Source: Candidatus Parcubacteria bacterium
Lineage (GTDB): Bacteria > Patescibacteriota > Patescibacteriia > Patescibacteriales > UBA12075
DNA length: 32,602 nucleotides
Assembly (NCBI GenBank): GCA_023142215.1
Contig: JAGLJW010000016.1
Span: forward strand, 1-32,602
Direction: 5' to 3'
Shown piece by piece: positions 9,756 through 32,075 of this stretch. Position numbers and translations under genes: made by a program. Each line of letters opens with the position of its first letter. The first letter of the stretch is position 1. The notes under the pieces are model-generated. The model ran no database searches. It saw nothing but the letters and a program-made list of their open reading frames with translations, and was not told where the DNA came from.

Positions 9756-9889
9756 AATATAAATTTTAATAACTTTAGTATATCATAAACTATCCACAAT
9801 TGCTTATTTTACGTTTTTGCTAATATTTAACAAAATGAACAATTTAAGTCTCTAATTTTACACTTGTTAATAGTTTATTCACATTTTTC

Positions 9890-10143
9890 ATACTTATGTC
9901 CACGCTAACGTGGACATAAGTATATTATTAAAAAAGATAAGTCCACGCTAACGTGGACTTATCTCTAATATTGTTAAAAATAAACGCGACTTATTAACAA
10001 TATAAATAATTAATATTTAGCTAATATTTAATAAATTAAAACTTTAAATATTCTTATCACCAACTTATCAACTTTTATACACCTGTTCACGCAATAATGT
10101 GCTCATAATAAGATAAGTCCACGCTAACGTGGACTTATCTTAT
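9890..10143. repeat. Palindrome family GTCCACG-NTAR-CGTGGAC: copies 9890..9923, 9935..9964, degenerate ~10084..10108, and 10108..10143
   Basis: Directly visible, e.g. atacttatgtccacgctaacgtggacataagtat and agataagtccacgctaacgtggacttatct. Confidence 0.9.
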
Positions 10144-10231
10144 AAATATTAAAATAATTTGGCCATATAACATTTAGTGTGCTATTTTTTTTATATCTAT
10201 TTATCTATAATAATCACAAAGTTTTTTTTCT

Positions 10232-10421
10232 TGCCATTCTCGTACCCGTCTACACGAATATAAACTCCAGCGGGAATCCATACCTGAACTGAATAGATAG
10301 GCGGGTTGGCAATACTGTCTTTTGTTATTATTAGATAAATTAATAGCAATTAAAAAAGGTTTTACTAAATTGAATTATCTCCTCTTTGTGGAAATGGATT
10401 CCCGCTTACGCGAGAATGACA
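10232..10421. repeat. dRS3/RPE-like inverted pair of the GTCATTCCCGC..GCGGGAATCCA type
   Basis: Left tgccattctcg...agcgggaatccat (10232..10281); right atggattcccgcttacgcgagaatgaca (10394..10421). Confidence 0.7.
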
Positions 10422-10481
10422 GGGAAAAAATAATGTTTAGTTGTAAAATCAATATTAATTTTTATCATTAAGTTATACACA

Positions 10482-10565
10482 GTAGCATACTTATGTCCAC
10501 GCTAACGTGGACATAAGTATGCTACAAAAAAAGATAAGTCCACGTTAACGTGGACTTATCTTTTT
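10482..10565. repeat. Palindrome doublet, same family as 9890..10143
   Basis: gtagcatacttatgtccacgctaacgtggacataagtatgctac (10482..10525) and perfect aaaaagataagtccacgttaacgtggacttatcttttt (10528..10565). Confidence 0.9.
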
Positions 10566-10579
10566 ATTTTTATATTTTT

Positions 10580-21254: not shown

Positions 21255-21491
21255 ATGACTACAATATTAAAAACTACTTCAAAAGGACAAATAACTATTC
21301 CTGTAGAATGGAGAAGATTATTTGATACAAATCAGTTTATTGCTACAACAAAAGGCGATAAATTAGAAATAAAACCTTTAATATTAGATGAAAAAAAGCC
21401 AGAAAAAGAGCTGACTGTTTTTGATGCTATTCGTGATAATAAAGGCCTTGGGATTAAAGCAAAAGACTTAGTTAAGTTGCTTAAAAAATAG
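21255..21491 (+). CDS. AbrB/MazE/SpoVT-family antitoxin
   Basis: TTSKGQITIPVEWRR swapped-hairpin motif. Confidence 0.85.
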   Translation: MTTILKTTSKGQITIPVEWRRLFDTNQFIATTKGDKLEIKPLILDEKKPEKELTVFDAIRDNKGLGIKAKDLVKLLKK

Positions 21492-21501
21492 TCTAAAGTG
21501 T

Positions 21502-21738
21502 ATGAACAAAATAGAAAAGTTATTGCGTAAAATTTCTAAAAAAGAAAGAAATAATCTTTTGATTTGTGTGAATATAATTATTAGTGGAGATTCAAAATTA
21601 AAAACAGTAAAAATTAAAAACACAGATTTTTACAGAACTAAATATAAGCAGTTTAGAATTATTTTTCATAAAGAAAAAAACGAAATAATTATTGACAATA
21701 TCAGAATGAGGAATGAAAGCACTTATAAAAATTTATAG
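21502..21738 (+). CDS. RelE/ParE-superfamily toxin
   Basis: Basic 78 aa, FYRTKYKQFRIIF...IRMRNESTY, directly after the antitoxin. Confidence 0.75.
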   Translation: MNKIEKLLRKISKKERNNLLICVNIIISGDSKLKTVKIKNTDFYRTKYKQFRIIFHKEKNEIIIDNIRMRNESTYKNL

Positions 21739-21754
21739 CTTTATATTTTTTTTG

Positions 21755-22693
21755 TTATTCTCTAAAATATTCTGCAGCAACTTCAGGTGAAATAGAATTT
21801 ATTACTAAGCCACTTCCAAGTTCAACTCCTGCCCAAATGCTGTCACGGGGTTGAACTTTTATATAAAAATGTTGATTCTTGTCTGAGATAACTTGATGCA
21901 TAAAATAATTATATGACAAATCTATTTTTTTAAGTTTCGTGAGGATTTTTTTTAGTATTGAGGCGAATGATTTAAATTCATCTTGATTCAAGGTGGTAAT
22001 ATTATCCGTGTGTCGTTTTGGAAAAATCCATGCTTCATAATGATATTCACTTGCGAAAGGGGTGAAAGCAATAACTTGCTTGTCTTCAAAAATTAATCTT
22101 TTACTTTTTGACTCTTTTTTAATAATGTCACAGTATGGACAAGTTTTATTTTTTTCTTTGTAGTTTTGTATTAAATTTGATTCTTCTTGAAGATCTGGTG
22201 GAATAATTTCTGTAGCAAATATTTGTGAATGAGAATGTATTAATGAAGCACCAGCTTTTGATCCTTGATTTTTAAAACAAAGAATATAATTAATTTTTTT
22301 GTCTTTTGATAATTCAAGGGTTCTTTTCTTGTACATTTCTAAAACATATCCAATTTCTTCTTCTGATAAATCAGCTAACTCTTTATGATGATGGGGTGTA
22401 TCAATAACAACTTCTTGATAACCATAAGCCTTGTCGTTCTCGGGTGTCATTGTCGGAAAAATATTTTTCACGCTAGTTACTTGACGAACATTATTAATTT
22501 TTAATTCATCAATAATATAATTGCCCTGTTCTTTTTGTTGTTTATCAATGCTTTCTGTGCAGAAATAACAGTCTTTAGCGCGTTTAATAATTGTTTCTTC
22601 CTTAACATCACGTGGCCTTTTAATTCGACCAGGAGTAATGACTACATATTTATTAAGTAAATATGATTTTCTAATTTCAGATTTTAAGTTCAT
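21755..22693 (-). CDS. galT: Galactose-1-phosphate uridylyltransferase (GalT family)
   Basis: R.KRP, CYFC, GYQEV, FKNQG..AGASLIHSHSQI, CPYC. Confidence 0.85.
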   Translation of the reverse strand: MNLKSEIRKSYLLNKYVVITPGRIKRPRDVKEETIIKRAKDCYFCTESIDKQQKEQGNYIIDELKINNVRQVTSVKNIFPTMTPENDKAYGYQEVVIDTPHHHKELADLSEEEIGYVLEMYKKRTLELSKDKKINYILCFKNQGSKAGASLIHSHSQIFATEIIPPDLQEESNLIQNYKEKNKTCPYCDIIKKESKSKRLIFEDKQVIAFTPFASEYHYEAWIFPKRHTDNITTLNQDEFKSFASILKKILTKLKKIDLSYNYFMHQVISDKNQHFYIKVQPRDSIWAGVELGSGLVINSISPEVAAEYFRE

Positions 22694-22863
22694 ATAAAAA
22701 AATTATTGTTATTAATTAATTATAACAAAAAATTTTAATTATAACGAATTTTTTAAAAATAGAAGCTACAATTCATTTTTATGAAAGTAGCTTTTTAATT
22801 TGAATATGTGTATGACAAAAATTCAATTATTGATTTTATGTAGCTCTCCTTGTTTAGTCTAGG

Positions 22864-23181
22864 CTAGTTGTTTCCTGTGCGAATGTTGTGCCAATTTAGA
22901 AATTGATCAAATAGGATTACTTGAGTGTCATCAAAAGAAGCTATAAGGTTTTTTGCACTTTTTTTACTATTCTCACTAATACAATTCTGACAGAATTTAT
23001 CTTTATCTTTTTTTGAGCCAGGTGTTTTCTTTCCGCATTGTAAACAAATAATTTCCCACGATGCCAAGTTTAGCATTAACCTCAAACACTTTAAACAATA
23101 TTCATGATTTTTTGGAACAAGTTTAATTTTTTTACATTTTGAGCATGTTTTTTTGTAAGGTGCTAATATTTCTTCTTTCAT
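22864..23181 (-). CDS. Hypothetical Cys-rich protein with four CxxC (double zinc ribbon)
   Basis: CSKC, CLKC, CLQC, CQNC; GGAGG RBS; TTGACT-N17-TACTAT promoter at 23247..23275 on the minus strand. Confidence 0.65.
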   Translation of the reverse strand: MKEEILAPYKKTCSKCKKIKLVPKNHEYCLKCLRLMLNLASWEIICLQCGKKTPGSKKDKDKFCQNCISENSKKSAKNLIASFDDTQVILFDQFLNWHNIRTGNN

Positions 23182-23299
23182 TTTTATACCTCCAGGTAAT
23201 TATGATTTGAAAAAATAATAAAAGAAATAACTTATTTAATATGCTAATAGTATAAAAAATTATCAATAAAGTCAATAGGGGTTTAACAAAAAATACAAA

Positions 23300-23326
23300 A
23301 AAGGTTTTACGTTATGTAAAACCTTT
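23300..23326 (-). terminator. Terminator downstream of hairpin copy 1
   Basis: aaaggttttac-gttat-gtaaaaccttt preceded by an A run on plus (U tail on minus). Confidence 0.6.
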
Positions 23327-23348
23327 CTGTTATTATAAAACTTTTTGG

Positions 23349-23626
23349 AAAAGAAAAAAGGATTGAGTGTTTGTGTTGGTTGAAGTTTTGTTTGGGTTTG
23401 TGTATAGAGTTTTTTGTTGGTGAGTATGGTTTTAATTCTTTATTAAGAAGCAAAACTATACTCATCAGCTCTAAACTCTATTCCCGTAAAACTTTAATCA
23501 ACTCTCAATCCTTATTAATATAATAGCATATAGAAATAATATGTCAAATGACTAATGTTAGTTTAAACTCTATTAAATAGTTGAAAAATATTATAAAATA
23601 AAAAAGTTATCCACAGATAGAATTAA
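23349..23626. repeat. ~278-bp direct repeat, copy 1
   Basis: Matches 24584..24862; includes a perfect TTATCCACA at 23607..23615. Confidence 0.95.
23358..23513 (-). ncRNA. Candidate ~156-nt rod-like ncRNA, copy 1 (family unknown)
   Basis: End-to-end imperfect hairpin; minus-strand promoter TTGACA(23542..23547)-N16-TATTAT(23520..23525) with extended TG placed at its 5' end; U tract at its 3' end. Confidence 0.55.
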
Positions 23627-23805
23627 TATAAAACATAAAAAACTATTAAAAAATAGTTCTTTTTGTTAAAGTAATTCTACTTACACTCAATATTTCAGTG
23701 GACTGTGCTTGTTTGAAGCTGAGCTTCAACGAGGTGGAGATGAAAACTGATAGTTGTCATTCTAGCTTTTTTAAGAAGAACAGGGGATACTATTTTGTTC
23801 CAAGA

Positions 23806-24441
23806 TTATAAAATATCTTTATAGTTATTAAGCATATCAATATAAGTATGCTCAATTTTTTTAACCAGTACTTCATCTTTTAATAATTCTTCTGTTTTAG
23901 TTTTGATCTTAATACCAAGTTTTTCGTTTATACCAAGAGCAAGCCACATATTAAAATTATCCTCAACTGTTATTTTCTTTTTATCTTTGTATAAATCAAC
24001 CATTATTTGGTTGTATTTTTTTATTTCATTAATATTTTCTCCATTTGGGTTGTACGAAAAAGCGAGATATTTTAAATATTTTTGAATTGGAAATTGTTGC
24101 ATATCATTCATGTCTTGGATTATTTTCATTGAAGTTGATATTATCCATCTTTGTTCATCATATCCGTTATGCTTTTTAGAAAAGAACTTTGGTAATACTC
24201 TTTTTTTCATTCGGTTTTGCATTATATCGCAAATTTGATGAACTTGCCAACCTTTCTTAAAATCATCTTTAGCGAATGCTGGATTTAAAATATCATCGTT
24301 GTGAGTCAATTCCCTGTCTATTTTTGTAACATAATGACTATCAGGGTAAATTGTTCCTGATATATATTTTTCTATATCTTGCACTTGATACTTGTTTTTT
24401 AAATCAAGAGCAAAGCGAATATGTGTTGCTTCTAATGACAT
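23806..24441 (-). CDS. Hypothetical protein, Zn-dependent phospholipase C/S1-P1-like metal motifs
   Basis: N-terminal ATH, GTIYPD, LTH and GWQVHQICD pattern. Confidence 0.55.
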   Translation of the reverse strand: MSLEATHIRFALDLKNKYQVQDIEKYISGTIYPDSHYVTKIDRELTHNDDILNPAFAKDDFKKGWQVHQICDIMQNRMKKRVLPKFFSKKHNGYDEQRWIISTSMKIIQDMNDMQQFPIQKYLKYLAFSYNPNGENINEIKKYNQIMVDLYKDKKKITVEDNFNMWLALGINEKLGIKIKTKTEELLKDEVLVKKIEHTYIDMLNNYKDIL

Positions 24442-24539
24442 ATTATAATTTTATCATAAAAGTTAGAATTAGTCCCGTTATTATAAAAAAAATACGTCAA
24501 ATGTAATTTTTTGTAATTTTGTGGGACAATAGTATACAA

Positions 24540-24563
24540 AAAAAGGCTTATATAAGCCTTTTT
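24540..24563. terminator. Terminator downstream of hairpin copy 2
   Basis: aaaaaggctta-ta-taagccttttt. Confidence 0.6.
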
Positions 24564-24583
24564 ATTAAAATAAAATTTTTTAA

Positions 24584-24862
24584 AAAAGAAAAAAGGATTG
24601 AGTGTTTGTGTTGGTTGAAGTTTTGTTTGGGTTTGTGTATAGAGTTTTTTGTTGGTGAGTATGGTTTTAATTCTTTAAGCAAGAAGCAAAACTATACTCA
24701 TCAGCTCTAAACTCTATTCCCGTAAAACTTTAATCAACTCTCAATCCTTATTAATATAATAGCATATAGAAATAATATGTCAAATGACCAATGTTAGTTA
24801 AAATTCTATTGAATAATTGAATAATATTATAAAATAAAAAAGTTATCAACAAATAGAATTAA
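24584..24862. repeat. ~279-bp direct repeat, copy 2
   Basis: Matches 23349..23626; the box is TTATCAACA at 24843..24851. Confidence 0.95.
24593..24749 (-). ncRNA. Candidate ~157-nt rod-like ncRNA, copy 2
   Basis: Identical to copy 1 except the apical loop; same promoter at 24756..24783. Confidence 0.55.
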
Positions 24863-24975
24863 GATGAAAGACAAAACAGGAAGAAGTATTAATTAATTTT
24901 CTTTCTGAATTACGATAAGGATGATATGTTTTGTATTATTTTTCGTGTATTTTATTATACTAATTTCAGCAGGTA

Positions 24976-25010
24976 TTGACTTATCCCCCATAATCCCCTA
25001 TAATACCTTA
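24976..25010 (+). promoter_or_regulatory. fic promoter with three 10-bp tandem repeats
   Basis: TTGACT-N17-TATAAT overlapped by ttatccccca/taatccccta/taatacctta. Confidence 0.65.
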
Positions 25011-25073
25011 TATAACTAATAAGAGTTATTCGTTTGAATCCATTGCTACGAATGCGGAATATGCGAATAAATA

Positions 25074-26153
25074 ATGAATATGATTAAAGAAAATAAATTA
25101 ATAGCGAGATTAAATTGGAAAAAATTTGAAGATACACAAAAAATACAGCGATTGCTTACAGAGATTGATGAGCTTAAAGGCAGATGGATTGCGGGGGTGA
25201 AATTATCACCGCAGATTTTAAATAAATTAAAAAAATCTGTAGTTATCACTTCCGCTGGAGCTAGTACTCGTATTGAGGGTGCTGAATTATCTGATGAGGA
25301 GATAGAAAAATTGTTTAAAGGTTTGAAAATTAAAAAATTTACCACCAGAGACGAACAGGAGGTTGCTGGTTATAAAGAATTGTTGGAAAATATTTTTAAT
25401 TCTTGGGAGAAAATAAAATTTAACGAAAATTCTATTAAACATTTTCATCAAGAATTATTAAAGTATTCCGAAAAAGATAAAAAACATTTGGGTAATTATA
25501 AATTTGGGAGCAATAGAGTTGAGGCGATTGATGCTAGTGGTAAAGTAATTGGTATTGTTTTTGAACCAACTCCTCCGCATCTAACTCCTAAAGAAATGTC
25601 TGAATTAATTGAATGGACTCAAAATGCCTTTAAAGAGAATTTAATTCATCCATTGCTTATCATTGGAAATTTTGTGTTAGAGTTTTTGGCAATTCATCCT
25701 TTTCAAGATGGTAATGGTCGATCTTCACGTGTGTTAACAAATTTCTTAATGCTTCAGTCGGGATATGAATATATGCCGTATGTTTCGCATGAGAAATTTA
25801 TAGAAGACAATAAAGTAGATTATTATTTAGCACTTAAAAAAAGTCAGGGAGATTGGAAAAAACGTAAGAGCGATATTGTACATTGGATGATTTTCTTTTT
25901 AACAATTTTACTTGAACAGGCAAAGATGGCGATTAAAATTAATGAGAGTGAAAGAATAGAACCTTTCCTGTCAGAAAAGCAATTAAAAGTATGGCAGTAT
26001 TTTGGGGAGCATGAATATGTTACTTCAAAAGATATTCGGGAGAACTTAGGAATCAAAGAAGCTACAGCGTTGCAGATTTTGAATAAGCTTTTGGAAATGA
26101 AAAAGATTGAGAGGCTTGGAATGGGAAGAGGTGTTCGTTATAGGAAAATATAA
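25074..26153 (+). CDS. Fic family protein, class II, with C-terminal winged HTH
   Basis: Canonical HPFQDGNGRSSR; N-terminal inhibitory STRIEG; C-terminal LNKLLEMKKIERLGMGRGVRY. Confidence 0.93.
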   Translation: MNMIKENKLIARLNWKKFEDTQKIQRLLTEIDELKGRWIAGVKLSPQILNKLKKSVVITSAGASTRIEGAELSDEEIEKLFKGLKIKKFTTRDEQEVAGYKELLENIFNSWEKIKFNENSIKHFHQELLKYSEKDKKHLGNYKFGSNRVEAIDASGKVIGIVFEPTPPHLTPKEMSELIEWTQNAFKENLIHPLLIIGNFVLEFLAIHPFQDGNGRSSRVLTNFLMLQSGYEYMPYVSHEKFIEDNKVDYYLALKKSQGDWKKRKSDIVHWMIFFLTILLEQAKMAIKINESERIEPFLSEKQLKVWQYFGEHEYVTSKDIRENLGIKEATALQILNKLLEMKKIERLGMGRGVRYRKI

Positions 26154-26175
26154 AAAATGTATAAATTATAAATAA

Positions 26176-29100
26176 ATGTCTATTAGAAAGAAACAAGTTA
26201 ATTTAACTACAAAATTAAAAGTTTACATTAACTGTGGTGGTAAGTGTGGTTTTCCAAACTGCAAAGAACATTTGGTTGAGGAAGATAGCATAGTAGGAGA
26301 TATAGCTCATATAAAAGCAAGAAGTGATGGAGGCCCAAGAGGTAATATTGATTTATCGGAAGAAAAAAGAAATTCACCAGATAATTTGATAGCCTTGTGC
26401 AAGAAGCATCACAAGATAATAGATGACCATCCAGATAAATATAGTGTCGAAGATATGGAAAAATGGAAGAATGATATAGAGGAATGGGCCATAAAATCAC
26501 CTGAAAAAACTGAGTTTGGTAAAAAACTAATATTAATAATGTTGTCTGAGTTGGAAAAAGAATTAGATAGAGGTAATGGAAAGTATGTACTTAAAACCAT
26601 TCAATCAATTAAGATTATCTCAGAAACTCTGGAGGATGATAGCGTTAATAGTGAGCTTGAAATATTAAAGGCAAGAGTCAAACAAAGTTTAGAAGACGTG
26701 AGTGAGGCCAAGAAACTATTAAAAAGCATTTCCAAACTTTATCCCAAAAATATTAAATCTATTCTTTATTTAGCTGAAATTTTTTTAAATGAGGGCGACT
26801 ACGATAAAAATGAAGAGTTATTAAAACAAGCTAAGAAGATAGATAAAAATCATTGGCTTTTTGTTATTGAACAATTGATTAGGAAGCTTCGTTTAAACCA
26901 AAGTATTGATACAACAAAAATTTATGAAAATGATTTTCCCAAAAATGAAAAACAAAAATCTATCTACTATCGTATTTATTCTCATTTTTATCAAAAAGAT
27001 AAAAATTATACAAAAGCTGATGAGTTTATAGAAAAATCAATTAAACTATATCCATGCTCATTTTCTAGCTTTAATACTAAGTTAGCTTTCAGTTTAGAGA
27101 GATTAGTTGAAAAAGGTTTTCCTCTTAAACATATAGAAAAGGCGGAGGAGATATTAAATCAAATTAATGAAATAGAAATAGAAAATAGTAATTGGGATGA
27201 TTTATATATTAGCAGTAAAACTATTTTAGAGTTTAGAAAGTTTTATATTTATGTAGTTCAGCAAAACTATAAAAAGATTATTTATGCTGGCAAAAAACTT
27301 GTTGACCTAATAATGCAATGCTCATTTGATTTAGATGTAGATAATTTTTTAAATTTACTTTTAACGCATTATCGTCCAGAAAAAGAAGATTTTGAGAAAA
27401 TTATTAAATACTTATCAGATAAAAACATCACTTATGATCTTGCAAAATCTTTGGCTTTTCAATTTTGTGAAAGGGGTAAATTATTTGCTGATGGCAAAAA
27501 GTTTTTATCTGCAAAGAATGAAAAAATTAAAGATTTAATTTTACACATAGAAGCAGGGAAGAAAAATGAAGTAATTGATTTTTTGAAAAAAGATTTACAG
27601 TTAATGTTAACGTTTGCAAATTGTTTAAAAGATAATCCTAGTTTGAGGAAAGATATAATTGACAATATACCAGACGATGACAACATCCAAAAAGAAAAAA
27701 TTTATCTATTATATTACTCTGATATAGAAGAATATAATAACGCCTTTAAAATCGTGCAAAACATAGAGTTTGAAAATGCAAATTATCTTGATTGCGAAAT
27801 ATCTTTAAAAGTGGTTCGAGAAAAACAAGCTTGGGAAATGGAGGTAAAAATTTTAGATAGATTATTCAAGTTAGAAAAAAATGAAAGAAAACAATTGACA
27901 TATAAGTTAGACCAATTTACTGCTTGTATGAAGATGGAAGATTATTTAGAGGTAATAAACATAGGCAAATATTTGTTAAGCAATCCCCAAACTTTTGAGT
28001 TAATAGATGAAAAGAATCAAGAACTATTGTTAGGACAAACAATAACCGCTTATTTACAAAGAAGCGAAGAAAAAGATGCCCTGAGGTTGTTTCAGAAATA
28101 TCCTAACATCATTAAAAGTTTTGAATTTGTTATTTCTGTAGAAGCTGAAGTTTATTTAAAAAATGAAGATTATAAAAAAGCATTATTGTCATTGTGTAAT
28201 GGAATTAAAAAAATCAGGAAGCCTACTAAAGAACAATACGGATATTTATTTTTTCAATTCGTCCAATTAAGCAATTCTGGTGTTGCTAAAATTGAAACAC
28301 TTGAAAAAATTACAAACAATTTTTTTGTAAAATTTAAAAACCAAGAGCAGTGGTATTATGTTGGTGATGAAGATGAGTTGGATGCTACTAAAATTAACTC
28401 CGCAAATAATAAATATAATTTGCTTATTGGTAAAAAGGTAAATGATAAAATAGAGTTTCCGGAGGATAAATATCAAACCAATAAAGAAGAAAGAAAGATT
28501 GAAAATATTTTAAATTTAGAGGCTTATATAAACTGGAAAGCTCACGATAGTTTTTTTAGTTTGTCAAAGCAAGGTAGGTGGGATATGGGAGTAGCAATTG
28601 AAGTGCCAAATGATGAAAATGGTGGTATAGATGTTAATAATGTAATAAATTTTATTAAAGACCAGCAAGAAAGAGGTAAAGAATTTTTTGGAGGCTATTG
28701 TTCGAATAATTACCCTTTTGCATTCTTGGCTTTAAGTGAGGGAGGGGTGACTAATGCAATTGGTAAAATCACAAAAGAAAATAAAGGGTTTATACGATTT
28801 TCTGATGGTTCAGTTCAGGATATAAATAAACAAGGGCAAGTAGCTGAAAAAATAATAGAGAATTCGGAAGTGTTTTTAGACGGCACAACAGCTCTCTTTT
28901 TAGCTGAAACAGGTTTATTGAAAAAAATAAAACCCTTCATTCCAAATTTAAAAGTGCCTCAATCGGTTATCACCTTTTTATTTAAAACTTTGGAGAAATT
29001 TAATATTACACCTGGACAGATTGGTCATATGGGATGTGTTGATGACAAATTAGTATCTGATAAGATTGATAAAGCAAAAAACGAAAGGATAAAAAACAAC

Positions 29101-29820
29101 TTTAAACAAAGTATAGAGATTTTAGAAAAAGACAAAAACAATATTTTCTCCATTTCTCAAGCAAATAAATCTGAACATTTTTCAGAAAGCAATATTGCTC
29201 CTGAATTAACAGACGCTTGTATTTTAGCACAAAAAAATAATGCCATTATAATAACCGAAGATTTCTTATATTTGCAAGCCAATAATTTGCAAACTAAAAA
29301 GGGCATACCAGAATATTGCTCACTATTTTCTATAGCCAAAAAGTTGCTTGAGAAGAATAAAATATCTTTTGATGACTACTTAAATATTTATTCCTATCTA
29401 TCTTCTTATAGATGCAGATTTTTAGATTTAAACGCAGACCTAATGATTAAATCTGTTTTTAGAGAAGTTGATAATATCAAATTTGAACCTCAAAAACTAC
29501 ACTATTTAAATCTTAATTTAACATTAACGGAAGAGTATGGGGTTAAACCAGAAAATGCCATAACTGTATTGAGTGAATTTATTTCAAGAATTATAGTGGC
29601 AAATATTGTCACCTTAGAAAATGTAAAAGAAATTTATGAGATTGTTTTGATTTCATCTTTATTTAAAGGGGAAAAGGATAATTGTTCAGCTTTATTAGAA
29701 AAATGTGAGAAGACGATAGTTGGATATTTTGAAAAGTATCATCTTTATTCTATTCCTGATTATACAAAAGAAAAAATTGCAGAATTGGAAAAACAACTAA
29801 ACGTACACACTATTTCGTAA
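26176..29820 (+). CDS. Large putative defence protein: HNH nuclease + TPR-like repeats + GreA/B-C-like + PIN-like domain
   Basis: CGGKCGFPNC...IAHI...GGPRG...NLIALCKKHHKIID; helical repeats; LLIGKKVNDKIEF; VFLDGTTAL...D..ILA....IITED. Confidence 0.7.
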   Translation: MSIRKKQVNLTTKLKVYINCGGKCGFPNCKEHLVEEDSIVGDIAHIKARSDGGPRGNIDLSEEKRNSPDNLIALCKKHHKIIDDHPDKYSVEDMEKWKNDIEEWAIKSPEKTEFGKKLILIMLSELEKELDRGNGKYVLKTIQSIKIISETLEDDSVNSELEILKARVKQSLEDVSEAKKLLKSISKLYPKNIKSILYLAEIFLNEGDYDKNEELLKQAKKIDKNHWLFVIEQLIRKLRLNQSIDTTKIYENDFPKNEKQKSIYYRIYSHFYQKDKNYTKADEFIEKSIKLYPCSFSSFNTKLAFSLERLVEKGFPLKHIEKAEEILNQINEIEIENSNWDDLYISSKTILEFRKFYIYVVQQNYKKIIYAGKKLVDLIMQCSFDLDVDNFLNLLLTHYRPEKEDFEKIIKYLSDKNITYDLAKSLAFQFCERGKLFADGKKFLSAKNEKIKDLILHIEAGKKNEVIDFLKKDLQLMLTFANCLKDNPSLRKDIIDNIPDDDNIQKEKIYLLYYSDIEEYNNAFKIVQNIEFENANYLDCEISLKVVREKQAWEMEVKILDRLFKLEKNERKQLTYKLDQFTACMKMEDYLEVINIGKYLLSNPQTFELIDEKNQELLLGQTITAYLQRSEEKDALRLFQKYPNIIKSFEFVISVEAEVYLKNEDYKKALLSLCNGIKKIRKPTKEQYGYLFFQFVQLSNSGVAKIETLEKITNNFFVKFKNQEQWYYVGDEDELDATKINSANNKYNLLIGKKVNDKIEFPEDKYQTNKEERKIENILNLEAYINWKAHDSFFSLSKQGRWDMGVAIEVPNDENGGIDVNNVINFIKDQQERGKEFFGGYCSNNYPFAFLALSEGGVTNAIGKITKENKGFIRFSDGSVQDINKQGQVAEKIIENSEVFLDGTTALFLAETGLLKKIKPFIPNLKVPQSVITFLFKTLEKFNITPGQIGHMGCVDDKLVSDKIDKAKNERIKNNFKQSIEILEKDKNNIFSISQANKSEHFSESNIAPELTDACILAQKNNAIIITEDFLYLQANNLQTKKGIPEYCSLFSIAKKLLEKNKISFDDYLNIYSYLSSYRCRFLDLNADLMIKSVFREVDNIKFEPQKLHYLNLNLTLTEEYGVKPENAITVLSEFISRIIVANIVTLENVKEIYEIVLISSLFKGEKDNCSALLEKCEKTIVGYFEKYHLYSIPDYTKEKIAELEKQLNVHTIS

Positions 29821-29875
29821 AATAAAAAAGAAATTATTTTTTAGTAAATACGATATGTCCCGTTACAAAATTAAG

Positions 29876-30115
29876 CTATTTCTGCTTTAATGAAAAATAA
29901 AAGAATTTTTCATCTTTTAACTCCATAGCTAATACATCTTCATAATCCGTATCTAGTAAATATTCATTCTCTTCTATAAAATTATCAAAAGCCTTTTTTT
30001 CATCTTCTCCGCTAGCAGTTCCAAGCACCTGTAAATTTTCAATATCAGGCATATTTGATTCGGTATTTGGTTGAAAAGTATAACCCTCTTGGGTTAAAAA
30101 AATAAAATGTCTCAT
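29876..30115 (-). CDS. Hypothetical acidic protein
   Basis: 79 aa (FIFLTQEGYTFQP...IENLQVLG); last gene of a tightly packed minus-strand operon. Confidence 0.7.
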   Translation of the reverse strand: MRHFIFLTQEGYTFQPNTESNMPDIENLQVLGTASGEDEKKAFDNFIEENEYLLDTDYEDVLAMELKDEKFFYFSLKQK

Positions 30116-30119
30116 AAAT

Positions 30120-30317
30120 TTAGTTTAGTTTATATCTTCCTCGAGAAACGAAACTTAAATAGCCTTTATCTTGAAGTAATTGTAATTGTTGTCTAATTTT
30201 ATCTTTAACGTGATTATTGTCAGGATGTTTTTTAACCCAATCTTCAGTTAAAACATGAATCTTTTGGGAGTTGCTTTTGTATTTATCTGCTATTTGGTTA
30301 TTTAAGTTTGTTTGCAT
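30120..30317 (-). pseudogene. Internally deleted DpnI / Dam-replacing family endonuclease
   Basis: N-terminal YKSNSQKI.VLTEDWV fused in frame to C-terminal HPDNNHVKDKIRQQLQ.L.DKG...F..RGRY. Confidence 0.8.
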
Positions 30318-30326
30318 AACTTGTTT

Positions 30327-30857
30327 TTATTTACCTTCCATTATCTGAAGAATATCATCTAATATTTTAATCGTTTTTCTTTTTTCTTCAAGCAACTCTT
30401 TCTTAAAAAGATTATTATATTCATAAGCTTCTTTTCTTTGCCTTTTATTTATATATTCAGACTCAAACATTTTTTTACATTCTGGAGAATCGTTGCTTAT
30501 TTTACTTGAGCCTAGAATAGATAAAAGTAAATGTTCAAGACAGGGAGTGTTTTCTATCAGCTCAATTTTCTTACTTCCAGCGATTTTTCTTGCTTCTTCA
30601 ATTTCGCCTTTTGGTTTGTCATTATCCAAAACAACAACTCTTCTATCAAATTCTCCTAACACTCTACTGGCATCAATTACAATATTAGCTGAATTTCCAC
30701 CCCTGCCTTTTCTAACAGTAATAGCTACGTTAGTATCACAACAGTATAACTTTTTTAAATGCTTTAAAAACATTTGCTCATTCATACCTTCGCCAAAAAT
30801 CAACAAAGTTTTATTTGCTTGGCGTCTTTTTCTTTTATATGGATTTGTTCTCGACAT
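30327..30857 (-). CDS. RloB-like (AbiLii-like) TOPRIM-related protein
   Basis: LIFGEG.NE..F, VVLDND, ENTPCLEHLLL. Confidence 0.8.
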   Translation of the reverse strand: MSRTNPYKRKRRQANKTLLIFGEGMNEQMFLKHLKKLYCCDTNVAITVRKGRGGNSANIVIDASRVLGEFDRRVVVLDNDKPKGEIEEARKIAGSKKIELIENTPCLEHLLLSILGSSKISNDSPECKKMFESEYINKRQRKEAYEYNNLFKKELLEEKRKTIKILDDILQIMEGK

Positions 30858-30860
30858 GTA

Positions 30861-32075
30861 TTATAGTTTAGGGACAGCACCGTAGGCACCAGCAATATAT
30901 TTTGAATAATAATTATCATCAGCGCGAACACCAGTAACATCATCAAGTCGCCAAGCTTCACTTTCACCTTTTTCATTTTTTTCAGTCAAAACAATTTGAT
31001 ATTTATCTAGCTTACTTAATATTTGATGACTATGACTACTAAAAAGCAATTGAGCATTTTTAGGATTAGTTTCTGGTTGCATAAATAAATCAAACAAAGC
31101 TAAAACTATTTCTGGATGCAAATTAACATCAAATTCATCTAATATTGCTGCTCCTCCGTTAGCCAAAACCAGCAAAATTGTTTTTAAGAGCACAAAAAGT
31201 TGTTTTGTTCCAGATGACTCATACTTTATTGGTATATATTTTTTTTCACCACCAAAAGTGTGTGCCACTCTAACATTGATACTTAGTCCGTTATCTTTTT
31301 TTTCTTTTTTTATTTCAAAAGAATCTAAACCAAGATCAAACTGTGATAAAAGCTTTTCGGCTTCAGCTTTAATGTGAGCATTCTTTTTCTCGCTAAAAAA
31401 ATCAAATGCTTCAATAAGTTGCTGATTAGCATTTGGAAGTAAATGGTTGCCAACCCAACCAGCTTCAATTACATTAGTTTCTATATTTTGCCAAAAATTA
31501 AATATTTCCAGACTTTTCTTGTGGTTAAATCGTGAAGCAACACTGATTATACTAGCATTAGAACGAAGAAGTTCTTCATATCCTTTTGGCAAATTAAACT
31601 TCTTGTCATCTAATTCGTACTTATTTTTTTCTTCATTCCATTTGCGAGAAAAAACTTTTTTAGTAGTTACTTTTTTAGTAGTTTTATTTTTTACTTTTAT
31701 TTCTTCTGCAATTATTTTCTTTTCATTTAAGATAAAAGTATAAACATAAATATTACCATTAATCTCAAAATCAACAGACAGTTCAGTGGATTTATTTTTA
31801 TTATTGCCAAATAAAAAAGGTTTTATTGGTAAAGGGGCATTAGGAGAGGCATTAAAAGAAGTAACTATTAACCATTTTAAAAATGGTAATATTTTTAATA
31901 GATTTGTTTTTCCAGATGCATTTGGTCCTATTACAGTTTCAATCTTTGAAAGATGAGCATCCGAGGTAGCCTGAAAATATCCATCGTTACTTGGCGCTTT
32001 ATCGTTTACTGTAAAATCTATTATAGTTAAATCTTTAAATGAATAAAAATTTTTACATGAAAATGAATGTATCAT
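30861..32075 (-). CDS. RloA-like (AbiLi-like) AAA_21 ABC-type ATPase
   Basis: KNFYSF, GPNASGKTN, ESSGTKQL, ILDEFDVNLHP, QLLFSSH, YIAGAYGAVP. Confidence 0.88.
   Translation of the reverse strand: MIHSFSCKNFYSFKDLTIIDFTVNDKAPSNDGYFQATSDAHLSKIETVIGPNASGKTNLLKILPFLKWLIVTSFNASPNAPLPIKPFLFGNNKNKSTELSVDFEINGNIYVYTFILNEKKIIAEEIKVKNKTTKKVTTKKVFSRKWNEEKNKYELDDKKFNLPKGYEELLRSNASIISVASRFNHKKSLEIFNFWQNIETNVIEAGWVGNHLLPNANQQLIEAFDFFSEKKNAHIKAEAEKLLSQFDLGLDSFEIKKEKKDNGLSINVRVAHTFGGEKKYIPIKYESSGTKQLFVLLKTILLVLANGGAAILDEFDVNLHPEIVLALFDLFMQPETNPKNAQLLFSSHSHQILSKLDKYQIVLTEKNEKGESEAWRLDDVTGVRADDNYYSKYIAGAYGAVPKL

Follow-up and report, generated by a model that had tools for sequence, protein, structure and literature searches.

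Several described classes of small RNA are close to the element reported here in one respect or another. Qrr1–5, LhrC1–5 and csRNA1–5 are multicopy, near-identical stand-alone small RNA (sRNA) genes with their own promoter and terminator, and their products, of about 50–110 nucleotides (nt), carry conserved single-stranded seeds. In vertebrates, Y RNAs have a link to replication initiation. The candidate phyla radiation (CPR), or Patescibacteria, makes up a large share of bacterial diversity, and to our knowledge almost nothing is known about its regulatory RNAs. Here we analyze a stretch of 32,602 nt from a Candidatus Parcubacteria bacterium (contig JAGLJW010000016.1 of assembly GCA_023142215.1; hereafter the window), which contains two direct copies (23298–23615 and 24534–24851) of a unit predicted to encode a structured non-coding RNA (ncRNA) on the minus strand. 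The unit very probably represents a real RNA gene family, and most of its members are preceded by a match to the DnaA box.

Like 6S (SsrS) and Ms1 RNAs, the element forms a stand-alone rod with paired 5′ and 3′ ends, in the range of 150–300 nt, with a strong promoter and usually a single copy; however, it has no two-sided bubble, its 5′ strand is almost fully paired, its apex and loops are variable, and its distribution is patchy. An end-to-end closing stem, single-stranded internal loops and a tail of U residues recall Y RNAs, as does the patchy distribution, and the DnaA box of the element echoes the replication link of the vertebrate Y RNAs; yet the element has no transfer-RNA-like module, and its loops are A/C-rich, not pyrimidine-rich. 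In contrast to Qrr, LhrC and csRNA, the conserved parts of the element are double-stranded, and most genomes carry one copy. The Caulobacter ncRNA CcnA is reported to depend on CtrA and to base-pair with the ctrA and gcrA messenger RNAs (mRNAs; PMC8959179). CcnA resembles the element in that ncRNA expression is tied to a replication or cell-cycle control circuit, but the two have no likeness in sequence or structure, and the tie of the element is a DnaA box, not CtrA. Among the open-access matches listed for DnaA box and small RNA, CcnA is the nearest idea. The msr-msd RNA of retrons is likewise closed by terminal inverted repeats (a1/a2) round a long hairpin and often lies in defence islands, and the RNA of the signal recognition particle (SRP; 4.5S or scRNA) is likewise hairpin-shaped with paired ends.

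The family was not recognised in the preliminary description of the window, and a search of Rfam 15 agrees. At E ≤ 1, positions 22000–26000 give microRNA-precursor noise only (best 29.7 bits against a cut-off of 56), and the loci of six relatives give nothing at the element. No open-access paper mentions the candidate phyla radiation together with 6S RNA, and among the matches listed from open-access text there is nothing relevant on Patescibacteria noncoding RNA and covariation. As far as Rfam 15 and the open-access literature go, the RNA family is undescribed.

A repeat search of the window aligns 23430–23667 with 24666–24903 (87%) and 23319–23442 with 24554–24677 (94%). Both copies carry on the minus strand a promoter of the form TTGACA-16-TGnTATTAT, which the promoter scan reports as TTGACA-16-TATTAT with a TG extension (11/12; 23547→23520 and 24783→24756). 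The predicted RNA start is 7 nt past the −10 element, at the first base of AAGGAUUGAG (23513 and 24749). The other side of the stem, CUCAAUCCUU, has its last base at 23358 and 24593, and UUUUUUCUUUU comes next. In a pairwise alignment, the two copies match base for base over the whole stretch between the −35 hexamer and the U tract, both included; the one exception is the apical loop of the hairpin (A-AT in copy 1 and GCTT in copy 2, on the minus strand). The ~75 nt 5′ of the −35 hexamer carry 8 substitutions, and the copies diverge 3′ of the U tract, yet a terminator hairpin forms in each. The alignment and the scans thus confirm what the preliminary description had seen here, namely a duplicated direct-repeat unit with a minus-strand promoter, an end-to-end hairpin and, past a U tract, a second terminator, in which promoter and stem are identical and, apart from about 8 upstream substitutions, only the loop differs. 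Two of its statements do not hold: conservation is not focused on the hairpin, since the promoter and the upstream DnaA box are also kept across genera, and the copy number is not two, since the genome has five. The features of the two copies are listed below; R1 and R3 are covariance models of the 5′ half and of the full length of the RNA, and P1–P5 are the stems of the rod.

23607..23615, minus strand: DnaA box of copy 1; TGTGGATAA on the minus strand, TTATCCACA on the plus strand; perfect match, 102 nt 5′ of the predicted start
23552..23561, no strand assigned: near-palindrome of copy 1, CTAACATTAG, directly 5′ of the −35 hexamer; CTAATATTAG in 3 other copies; possible second protein site
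23520..23547, minus strand: predicted promoter of copy 1; TTGACA, 16 nt, TGcTATTAT; scan 11/12
23358..23513, minus strand: RNA core of copy 1; 156-nt rod P1–P5, AAGGAUUGAG...CUCAAUCCUU; 124.7 bits with R1, 148.6 bits with R3
23345..23357, minus strand: U tract of copy 1, after stem P1; predicted first termination point
23298..23328, minus strand: second intrinsic terminator of copy 1, predicted; copy-specific; the scan gives 23328→23298
24843..24851, minus strand: degenerate DnaA box of copy 2; TGTTGATAA, one mismatch
24756..24783, minus strand: predicted promoter of copy 2; TTGACA, 16 nt, TGcTATTAT; from the promoter scan
24593..24749, minus strand: RNA core of copy 2; 157 nt, apical loop one base longer; 122.1 bits with R1, 147.7 bits with R3
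24580..24592, minus strand: U tract of copy 2, read from the sequence and the alignment of the copies
24534..24561, minus strand: second terminator of copy 2, predicted; GGCTTATATAAGCC, then a T run; common to the copy on contig C29

The U tract after P1 is kept in every homologue compared at that position. The other copies and the relatives have a terminator hairpin of different sequence at the position of the second terminator.

This genome (1.19 Mb in 92 contigs, 29% G+C, 87% complete) holds five copies at 94–96% identity: the two of the window plus single copies on contigs C29, C15 and C58. Each occupies an intergenic gap. Placed in register, the five share a unit that starts just 5′ of TGTGGATAAC and stops past the second terminator. 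On C15 and C58 the unit abuts a convergent gene at its end. Therefore, the RNA unit is not the 5′ leader of a downstream gene. In two DNA sequencing runs, the unitig of the hairpin core has 3.5–4.5 times the depth of its flanking contigs, which fits several copies but is not a count. In addition, DNA contigs of two runs (X1 and X4, at depths of 3 and 4.7) join 22745 to 25080 with 12 other letters between, and the 2.3-kb segment 22745–25080, with both RNA copies and two orphan open reading frames (ORFs), seems to be absent in some population variants.

Folded one by one, the members of the family form a common rod. P1 (12 bp) pairs the first RNA bases with the bases preceding the U tract. It is followed by P2 (about 12 bp, AGAUUGAAGUUU/AAACUUCAAUC), P3 and P4, and the rod ends in a long apical stem, P5. 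The junction between P2 and P3 has 2–5 nt on the 5′ side versus 0–230 nt on the 3′ side; the RNA of this genome has small internal loops only. Both strands of the window copy were folded, as proposed in the preliminary description, and the 172-nt stretch forms a hairpin far beyond chance on each: −44.8 kcal/mol on the minus strand (z-score −8.2) and −69.8 kcal/mol on the plus strand (z-score −11.2), with 0 of 200 shuffles as good in either case.

The pairing is preserved by compensatory changes. Since full-length MAFFT alignments misplaced the 3′ strands, we use per-sequence folds and a model-based alignment. When the members' own folds are projected on the aligned 5′ arm, 34 of the 50 consistently paired columns show changes on both sides; in an alignment of the apical stem, 9 of 17 pairs do. 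P1 occurs in at least 8 compensated versions, for example, AAGATTGAGAGT/ACTCTCAATCTT, AAGATTGGTAGC/GCTACCAATCTT and AAGATAGAGTGT/ACACTCTATCTT. The alignment from R3 keeps 20 of 35 rows (of the 15 dropped, 8 match in antisense, 3 are paralogues from this genome that are nearly identical, and 4 are partial or tandem). In these 20 rows, canonical pairs make up 94.1% of cells, and 30 of 42 pairs show changes on both sides. When the 3′ letters are shuffled, the corresponding values are 81.6% (standard deviation 0.7) and 13.0 (standard deviation 2.2), and none of 500 shuffles reaches the observed values. Sequence conservation falls on the stems and not on the single-stranded regions, and variation is greatest at the apex. 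In particular, the sequence-conserved double-stranded parts are two AGAUUGA/UCAAUCU duplexes, in P1 and P2, and lower P5. At columns 146/180 of one alignment (A8; P5), 10 of 20 sequences have an A·C mismatch, 7 an A-U pair and 3 a G-C pair, which looks like a tolerated or selected A·C wobble.

Conservation of the promoter, the start position and the two terminators is confined to the minus strand. In the sense strand of the relatives, G·U pairs outnumber A·C mismatches in 13 of 16 cases, with 2 ties and 1 reversed, and one apical pair is G·U in 8 of 11 sequences. On account of the conserved signals and the excess of G·U pairs, we take the minus strand as the RNA strand. A 52-codon frame on the minus strand is stopped in one relative (G012), the plus-strand frame is shifted by a 1-nt loop indel between the window copies, and close relatives differ by 1-nt indels and have loop repeats with an 8-nt period, indicating that the element is non-coding. 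Judged from its sequence, the element has the marks of a stand-alone bacterial sRNA, namely its own promoter, a predicted start, an intrinsic terminator, a conserved structure and no frame. In accordance, covariation and the promoter and terminators conserved in more than 20 other genomes support the non-coding structured RNA unit that the preliminary description had suggested on the minus strand.

A BLAST search within the taxonomic family finds clear homologues in 3 genomes of one genus (76–80% identity) and weaker matches, chiefly in the upstream region, in 3 more genomes. Of 151 genomes sampled from the order, 20 are positive for the element with R1, this genome counted. The positive families are f1 (6/18), f3 (2/19), f4 (2/3), f8 (2/9), f15 (1/1), f18 (1/2), f19 (1/4) and f20 (4/5); none is found in f5 (0/11), f10 (0/18), f12 (0/18) and f16 (0/11). 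A second covariance model (R2), built from 25 diverse members, recovers exactly the same 20 genomes. Its sense-strand matches outside this genome have E ≤ 6e-13, except the second tandem unit of G043 (5.5e-8), and all weaker matches are the opposite strand of those loci. As R2 repeats the genomes of R1 with strong E-values, the patchy distribution looks real and not a limit of sensitivity. In one genus, 3 genomes carry the RNA and a fourth, 98% complete, is without it. The copy number per genome is almost always one, with two in tandem in G043. In the rest of the class, 1 of 150 further genomes has the RNA.

Wider scans used a 24-nt degenerate pattern of the RNA 5′ end, with R2 as confirmation. 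Among 185,579 species genomes the pattern occurs at 103 places, and 16 loci are confirmed. Among the first 80 of at least 117 pattern loci on metagenome contigs, 9 are confirmed, and on viral contigs 0 of 10 pattern loci are confirmed. Eleven confirmed loci carry taxon labels: Candidatus Falkowbacteria (4), Patescibacteria group (1), Candidatus Buchananbacteria (1), ‘bacterium’ (1) and, in the remaining 4, the automatic label ‘uncultured Gammaproteobacteria’. Two loci (L040, in G043, and L256) have tandem RNA units of which the first has no terminator of its own; these are probably one transcript with two rods. Four metagenome contigs (L228, L257, L281 and L298) have near-identical RNA genes and differing flanks, which suggests that the unit recombined or moved. 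In two of the four, the RNA is followed by a gene whose N-terminus resembles alanyl-tRNA synthetase by eye.

Upstream sequence of at least 130 nt is available for 26 loci. The −35 hexamer is at −34 in 21 of them. The sense-oriented motif TGTGNA[TC]AA (TGTGNAYAA) is found within −140 to −70 in 23 of the 26 loci and in 19 of 21 genomes, in a single orientation. It corresponds to the established DnaA-box consensus, TTATNCACA, read on the other strand, plus one TGTGGACAA variant. An extended form, cTGTGGATAACt, is common among the loci, and G062 has two tandem perfect boxes. The distances fall into classes (−92/−93, −100 to −105, −112 to −116 and, once, −131) that are about one helical turn apart, as required for a protein that acts on the promoter from one face of the helix. 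A consensus box at a conserved place beside the promoter, as in these 23 of 26 loci, is what a putative member of the DnaA regulon would have, and we consider it reasonably probable that DnaA controls the RNA gene. A conserved, helically phased DnaA box before an RNA gene is unusual.

No dnaA gene is found among the neighbours of the homologous loci, and no cluster of boxes precedes the dnaA gene of the window (15549). The upstream box is not part of a replication origin. Boxes with at most one mismatch are not enriched in the window (14 versus 11.65 expected). An intergenic region of ~800 bp (9756–10579) holds three one-mismatch DnaA-box-like 9-mers (9790, 9875 and 10473) and may be the origin region. 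Between the box and the −35 hexamer, many members carry the near-palindrome (G)CTAATATTAG(C), and in many homologues a related motif, GCTAATATTA, lies 5′ of the −35 hexamer; both distances are variable. As a mark of a regulon, CTAATATTAG was rejected: it occurs 7 times in the genome, 3 times within the elements, and the other 4 are outside such a promoter setting.

The base composition of the rod is segregated. The 5′ arm has 29% G and 4.3% C, and the 3′-side regions between the stems (1692 nt) have 46% A, 38% C, 13% U and 2.1% G; at the junction between P2 and P1 the values are 58% A, 29% C and 5% G. The 3′ loop is almost nil in this genome (157-nt RNA) and 70–150 nt elsewhere, with a maximum of about 230 nt, and the total length of the RNA ranges from 157 to 450 nt across the family. 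In two genomes the loops are simple repeats with units of 8 or 4 nt. One locus (L046, in G130) has its A/C loop expanded to about 230 nt of CAAACAAC-like units, and in another (L047, in G051) the A/C loop has (CAACA)n and (CCAA)n runs. Three genomes have an accessory hairpin with the loop CGGAUAACU; it was considered as a dispersed repeat and rejected, being confined to the RNA gene in those genomes. The DnaA box, the segregation of G and C and the A/C-only loops of free length are unusual for a stand-alone structured sRNA.

We propose that each copy is an independent minus-strand gene for a small ncRNA of about 156–165 nt, which a strong σ70-type promoter would start at the first base of P1. 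With G on the 5′ arm and C on the 3′ side, neither half would fold on itself, an A/C-only RNA being unable to pair, and the long-range rod would be the only stable fold. P1 and the U tract would double as an intrinsic terminator, and the second hairpin would catch read-through. DnaA would gate transcription, tying the RNA level to the state of replication initiation. The RNA would act in trans as a stable protein-binding RNA; the recognition site would be the sequence-conserved double-stranded P1/P2 (AGAUUGA/UCAAUCU), and the A/C-only loops would be structure-free and dispensable spacers or a platform, lost in the version of this genome. Protein binding fits better than a seed-pairing sRNA because the conserved parts are double-stranded and the single strands vary or vanish. 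Taken as a whole, a stand-alone, DnaA-box-linked, trans-acting structured RNA is marginally favoured. A protein-binding rather than base-pairing mode is put forward tentatively, at somewhat below even chances. It is a speculative and rather unlikely extension that this DnaA-gated regulatory RNA reads out replication initiation and binds and restrains a central machine, either RNA polymerase, taking the place of the undetected 6S RNA, or a replication or RNA-processing protein. If it were true, minimal cells without detected Hfq and Rho would have an RNA-based link from chromosome replication to gene expression. The DnaA box by itself suggests an RNA-level coupling of replication initiation to other processes in such cells. 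The segregation of G and C, together with A/C-only loops of free length, would be an instructive example from nature of how a long-range hairpin can fold free of kinetic traps. With a promoter, a predicted start, two terminators, five covarying stems and defined taxa, the new family is ready for Rfam-type curation and annotation.

Several points weigh against this proposal. The start, the end and the strand of the RNA are predictions, and all 5 sequencing runs listed for the element are DNA. In this genome only, the plus strand folds better than the minus strand (−69.8 versus −44.8 kcal/mol), and the minus-strand rod has 5 A·C mismatches versus 1 G·U pair. The covariation counts come from structure-fitted alignments of related sequences. 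With 13% of sampled genomes positive, the patchiness speaks against a core housekeeping function. DnaA binding is read solely from the universal box consensus, and 3 of 26 loci have no box. At 7 metagenome loci, the box is TGTGGATAA in 4, TGGGGATAA in one, an inverted TTATCCCCA in one and missing in one. With 28 perfect boxes in this genome, the occurrence of one box is not in itself a rare event. The RNA has no conserved neighbouring gene; an RNase_T/DnaQ-like exonuclease gene adjoins it in just 3 of 15 loci. Finally, searches for Hfq, Rho and Ro60 as possible partner proteins find none of them in the five genomes tested for each, and Ro60/TROVE (PF05731) is not among the neighbours either. 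On these counts, a platform role for Hfq (Hfq in 0/5) and a Rho-loading or Rho-sponge role of the C-rich, G-poor loops (Rho_RNA_bind in 0/5) were rejected.

Two other functions of the RNA are improbable to about the same degree. The first is a 6S/Ms1-like decoy, in which the rod mimics promoter DNA, binds RNA polymerase, damps transcription and replaces 6S RNA. The closing stem P1+P2 of about 24 bp, followed by an interruption and a terminal stem P3–P5, resembles such a decoy, as do the length, the strong promoter and the usually single copy. Moreover, in five RNA-carrying genomes (this genome, G022, G024, G086 and G054) the Rfam 6S model finds nothing at E ≤ 1 (0/5), and RNase P RNA is found in 4 of the 5. 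The 6S miss means little, however, because a control search for 6S is positive in only 5 of 14 well-known genomes. The models of small and large SRP RNA (RF00169 and RF01854) also find nothing in the five genomes (0/5) or at the element; the SRP RNA of the lineage may be too divergent for current models. Against the decoy, which the preliminary description had raised, there is no Rfam 6S match at the element and no two-sided central bubble: the bubble is one-sided, with 2–5 nt on the 5′, template-like side against 0–230 nt on the 3′ side, and this genome has none. In addition, only 20 of the 151 genomes of the order carry the RNA.

The second is a base-pairing regulatory RNA, in which loop sequences such as CCUCC and CCCC pair with Shine-Dalgarno or other G-rich mRNA sites. 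C-rich motifs of Gram-positive sRNAs pair with such sites, and several paralogous copies per genome are known for some sRNA families. The single-stranded loops are rich in C and free of G, CCUCC, CUCCC or ACCUC occur in several relatives, and the several paralogous copies in this genome recall the pattern of those sRNA families. Yet neither the sequence nor the length of the loops is conserved, some loops are simple repeats, and the window version is almost loopless with its CCC paired. The conserved sequence sits in the stems, and, as stated above, the five genomes tested for it have no detected Hfq.

It is less probable still that the element works at the level of DNA, the DnaA box, an AT-rich stretch and the inverted repeat forming a DnaA-titrating or replication-control site or a cruciform, with the transcript secondary. 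The conserved, helically phased box and the two tandem boxes in G062 would suit such a site, as would a box-like CGGATAAC inside the RNA gene in 3 genomes and the 4 perfect boxes that the five copies contribute to this genome. However, there is one box per locus and no cluster, and no dnaA gene is near the other loci. Furthermore, G·U pairs and compensatory changes preserve RNA pairing on one strand, the promoter, the start site and two terminators are conserved, and a DNA cruciform would be disrupted by long A/C insertions in one arm only.

A mobile or selfish repeat (MITE-like, that is, like a miniature inverted-repeat transposable element, or a satellite), spread by transposition or recombination with no cellular function, is very unlikely. 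Its presence in 5 copies at 94–96% identity, its patchiness even within a genus, the variable flanking genes, the near-identical RNAs in different metagenome flanks and a transposase beside the RNA in one relative would be in keeping with mobility, as would the 2.3-kb segment with both copies apparently missing in two DNA runs of low depth. On the other hand, most genomes have exactly one copy, none of the 10 pattern matches on viral contigs is true, and the stems covary under selection for pairing. The preliminary description had named scattered copies with target-site duplications as the sign of a MITE; the five copies carry a promoter, the repeated unit stretches from the DnaA box to the second terminator with ends that are unrelated and do not form inverted repeats, and the flanks show no duplication.

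Scarcely credible is a functional plus strand, whose product would be a G/U-rich RNA or else the mRNA of a type I toxin, a small hydrophobic peptide, with the minus-strand RNA as its antisense antidote. The plus strand does fold 25 kcal/mol better in this genome, and it holds a 50-codon TTG frame (23371–23523) with a hydrophobic start, then a basic tail, and AAGGA upstream. But the 1-nt loop indel puts this frame out of register between the copies, the relatives have 1-nt indels and 8-nt repeats, and no promoter or ribosome site is conserved, AAGGA being AAGATTG in relatives. G/T-rich DNA yields hydrophobic frames through composition alone, and G·U exceeds A·C on the minus strand in 13 of 16 relatives.

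A defence island lies to the right of the window copies (25074–32075). It consists of a SoFic gene (25074–26153), encoding a Fic protein with a C-terminal winged-helix part, an HNH-TPR-PIN gene (26176–29820; 1214 amino acids, PIN-TPR-GreABC family), a DpnI fragment of 65 amino acids and an AbiLii/AbiLi pair (RloB/AAA_21). At 15 homologous loci and beside the 3 other copies of this genome, the neighbours are unrelated to these genes and mostly housekeeping, and Fic, HNH-TPR-PIN and AbiL genes are found at none of them (0/15 and 0/3). The 3 other copies are beside genes for a ComF-like phosphoribosyltransferase and uracil-DNA glycosylase, for a surface protein with nusB and rnc, and for thioredoxin and a DksA-like protein. 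Neighbours are kept within genera: G022 and G023 have the same flanking ORF pattern (that of G022 was scanned for domains), and an RNase_T-family gene adjoins the RNA in both G012 and G013. alaS adjoins the RNA in G062 and apparently also in two metagenome contigs. As no other locus has such a context and neighbours differ between genera, the link of the RNA to the Fic and HNH-TPR-PIN genes is incidental, and the ligand for these divergent genes that the preliminary description had considered finds no support in the 15 other loci and 3 paralogues; its antitoxin idea fails likewise, as no conserved gene adjoins the RNA. A guard, antitoxin or ligand RNA of the neighbouring SoFic, HNH-TPR-PIN and AbiL genes is thus most improbable: both window copies lie at the left edge of the island, in an apparently strain-variable segment, but no other copy or homologous locus is beside such genes, and the RNA, equipped with a promoter and terminators of its own, is oriented away from the island.

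Other known classes were tried and rejected. A retron ncRNA has no counterpart here, as no reverse transcriptase domain turns up among the neighbours in the window, the 49 proteins encoded beside 14 loci or the 12 proteins beside the other copies of this genome. For SRP RNA, the apical loop has no conserved GNRA tetraloop and is variable, the RNA is in 20/151 genomes (13%), and there are five copies here; a helix-8 motif of SRP RNA has 0 matches in the genome, a result of little weight. A type I toxin-antitoxin system was rejected because the frames are broken by indels and repeats and no ribosome site is conserved, and a type III system or cis-acting leader because the downstream genes differ and a convergent gene comes next on C15 and C58. 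A mimic or derivative of the leader or processing stem of 16S ribosomal RNA was also rejected: this genome has no assembled 16S, and the leaders of four relatives are unlike P1/P2. These leaders (L084 in G024, L085 in G022, L086 in G062 and L087 in G054) have a hairpin, TTTTGGCGCTAACAGGCGCCAATT, ~100–170 nt before the 16S, with small sequence differences in G062, and a CTCTTGACA promoter further upstream in all four.

Two orphan ORFs lie downstream of the window copies on the minus strand, one of 105 amino acids with CxxC pairs (22864–23181) and one of 211 amino acids (23806–24441). Neither has a match in Pfam, PADLOC, NCBIfam or PHROGs, or a paralogue in the genome. Further to the left (21255–21738), a MazE/AbrB-type antitoxin gene (78 amino acids) is followed by a 78-amino-acid ORF without a family, a possible small toxin-antitoxin pair.

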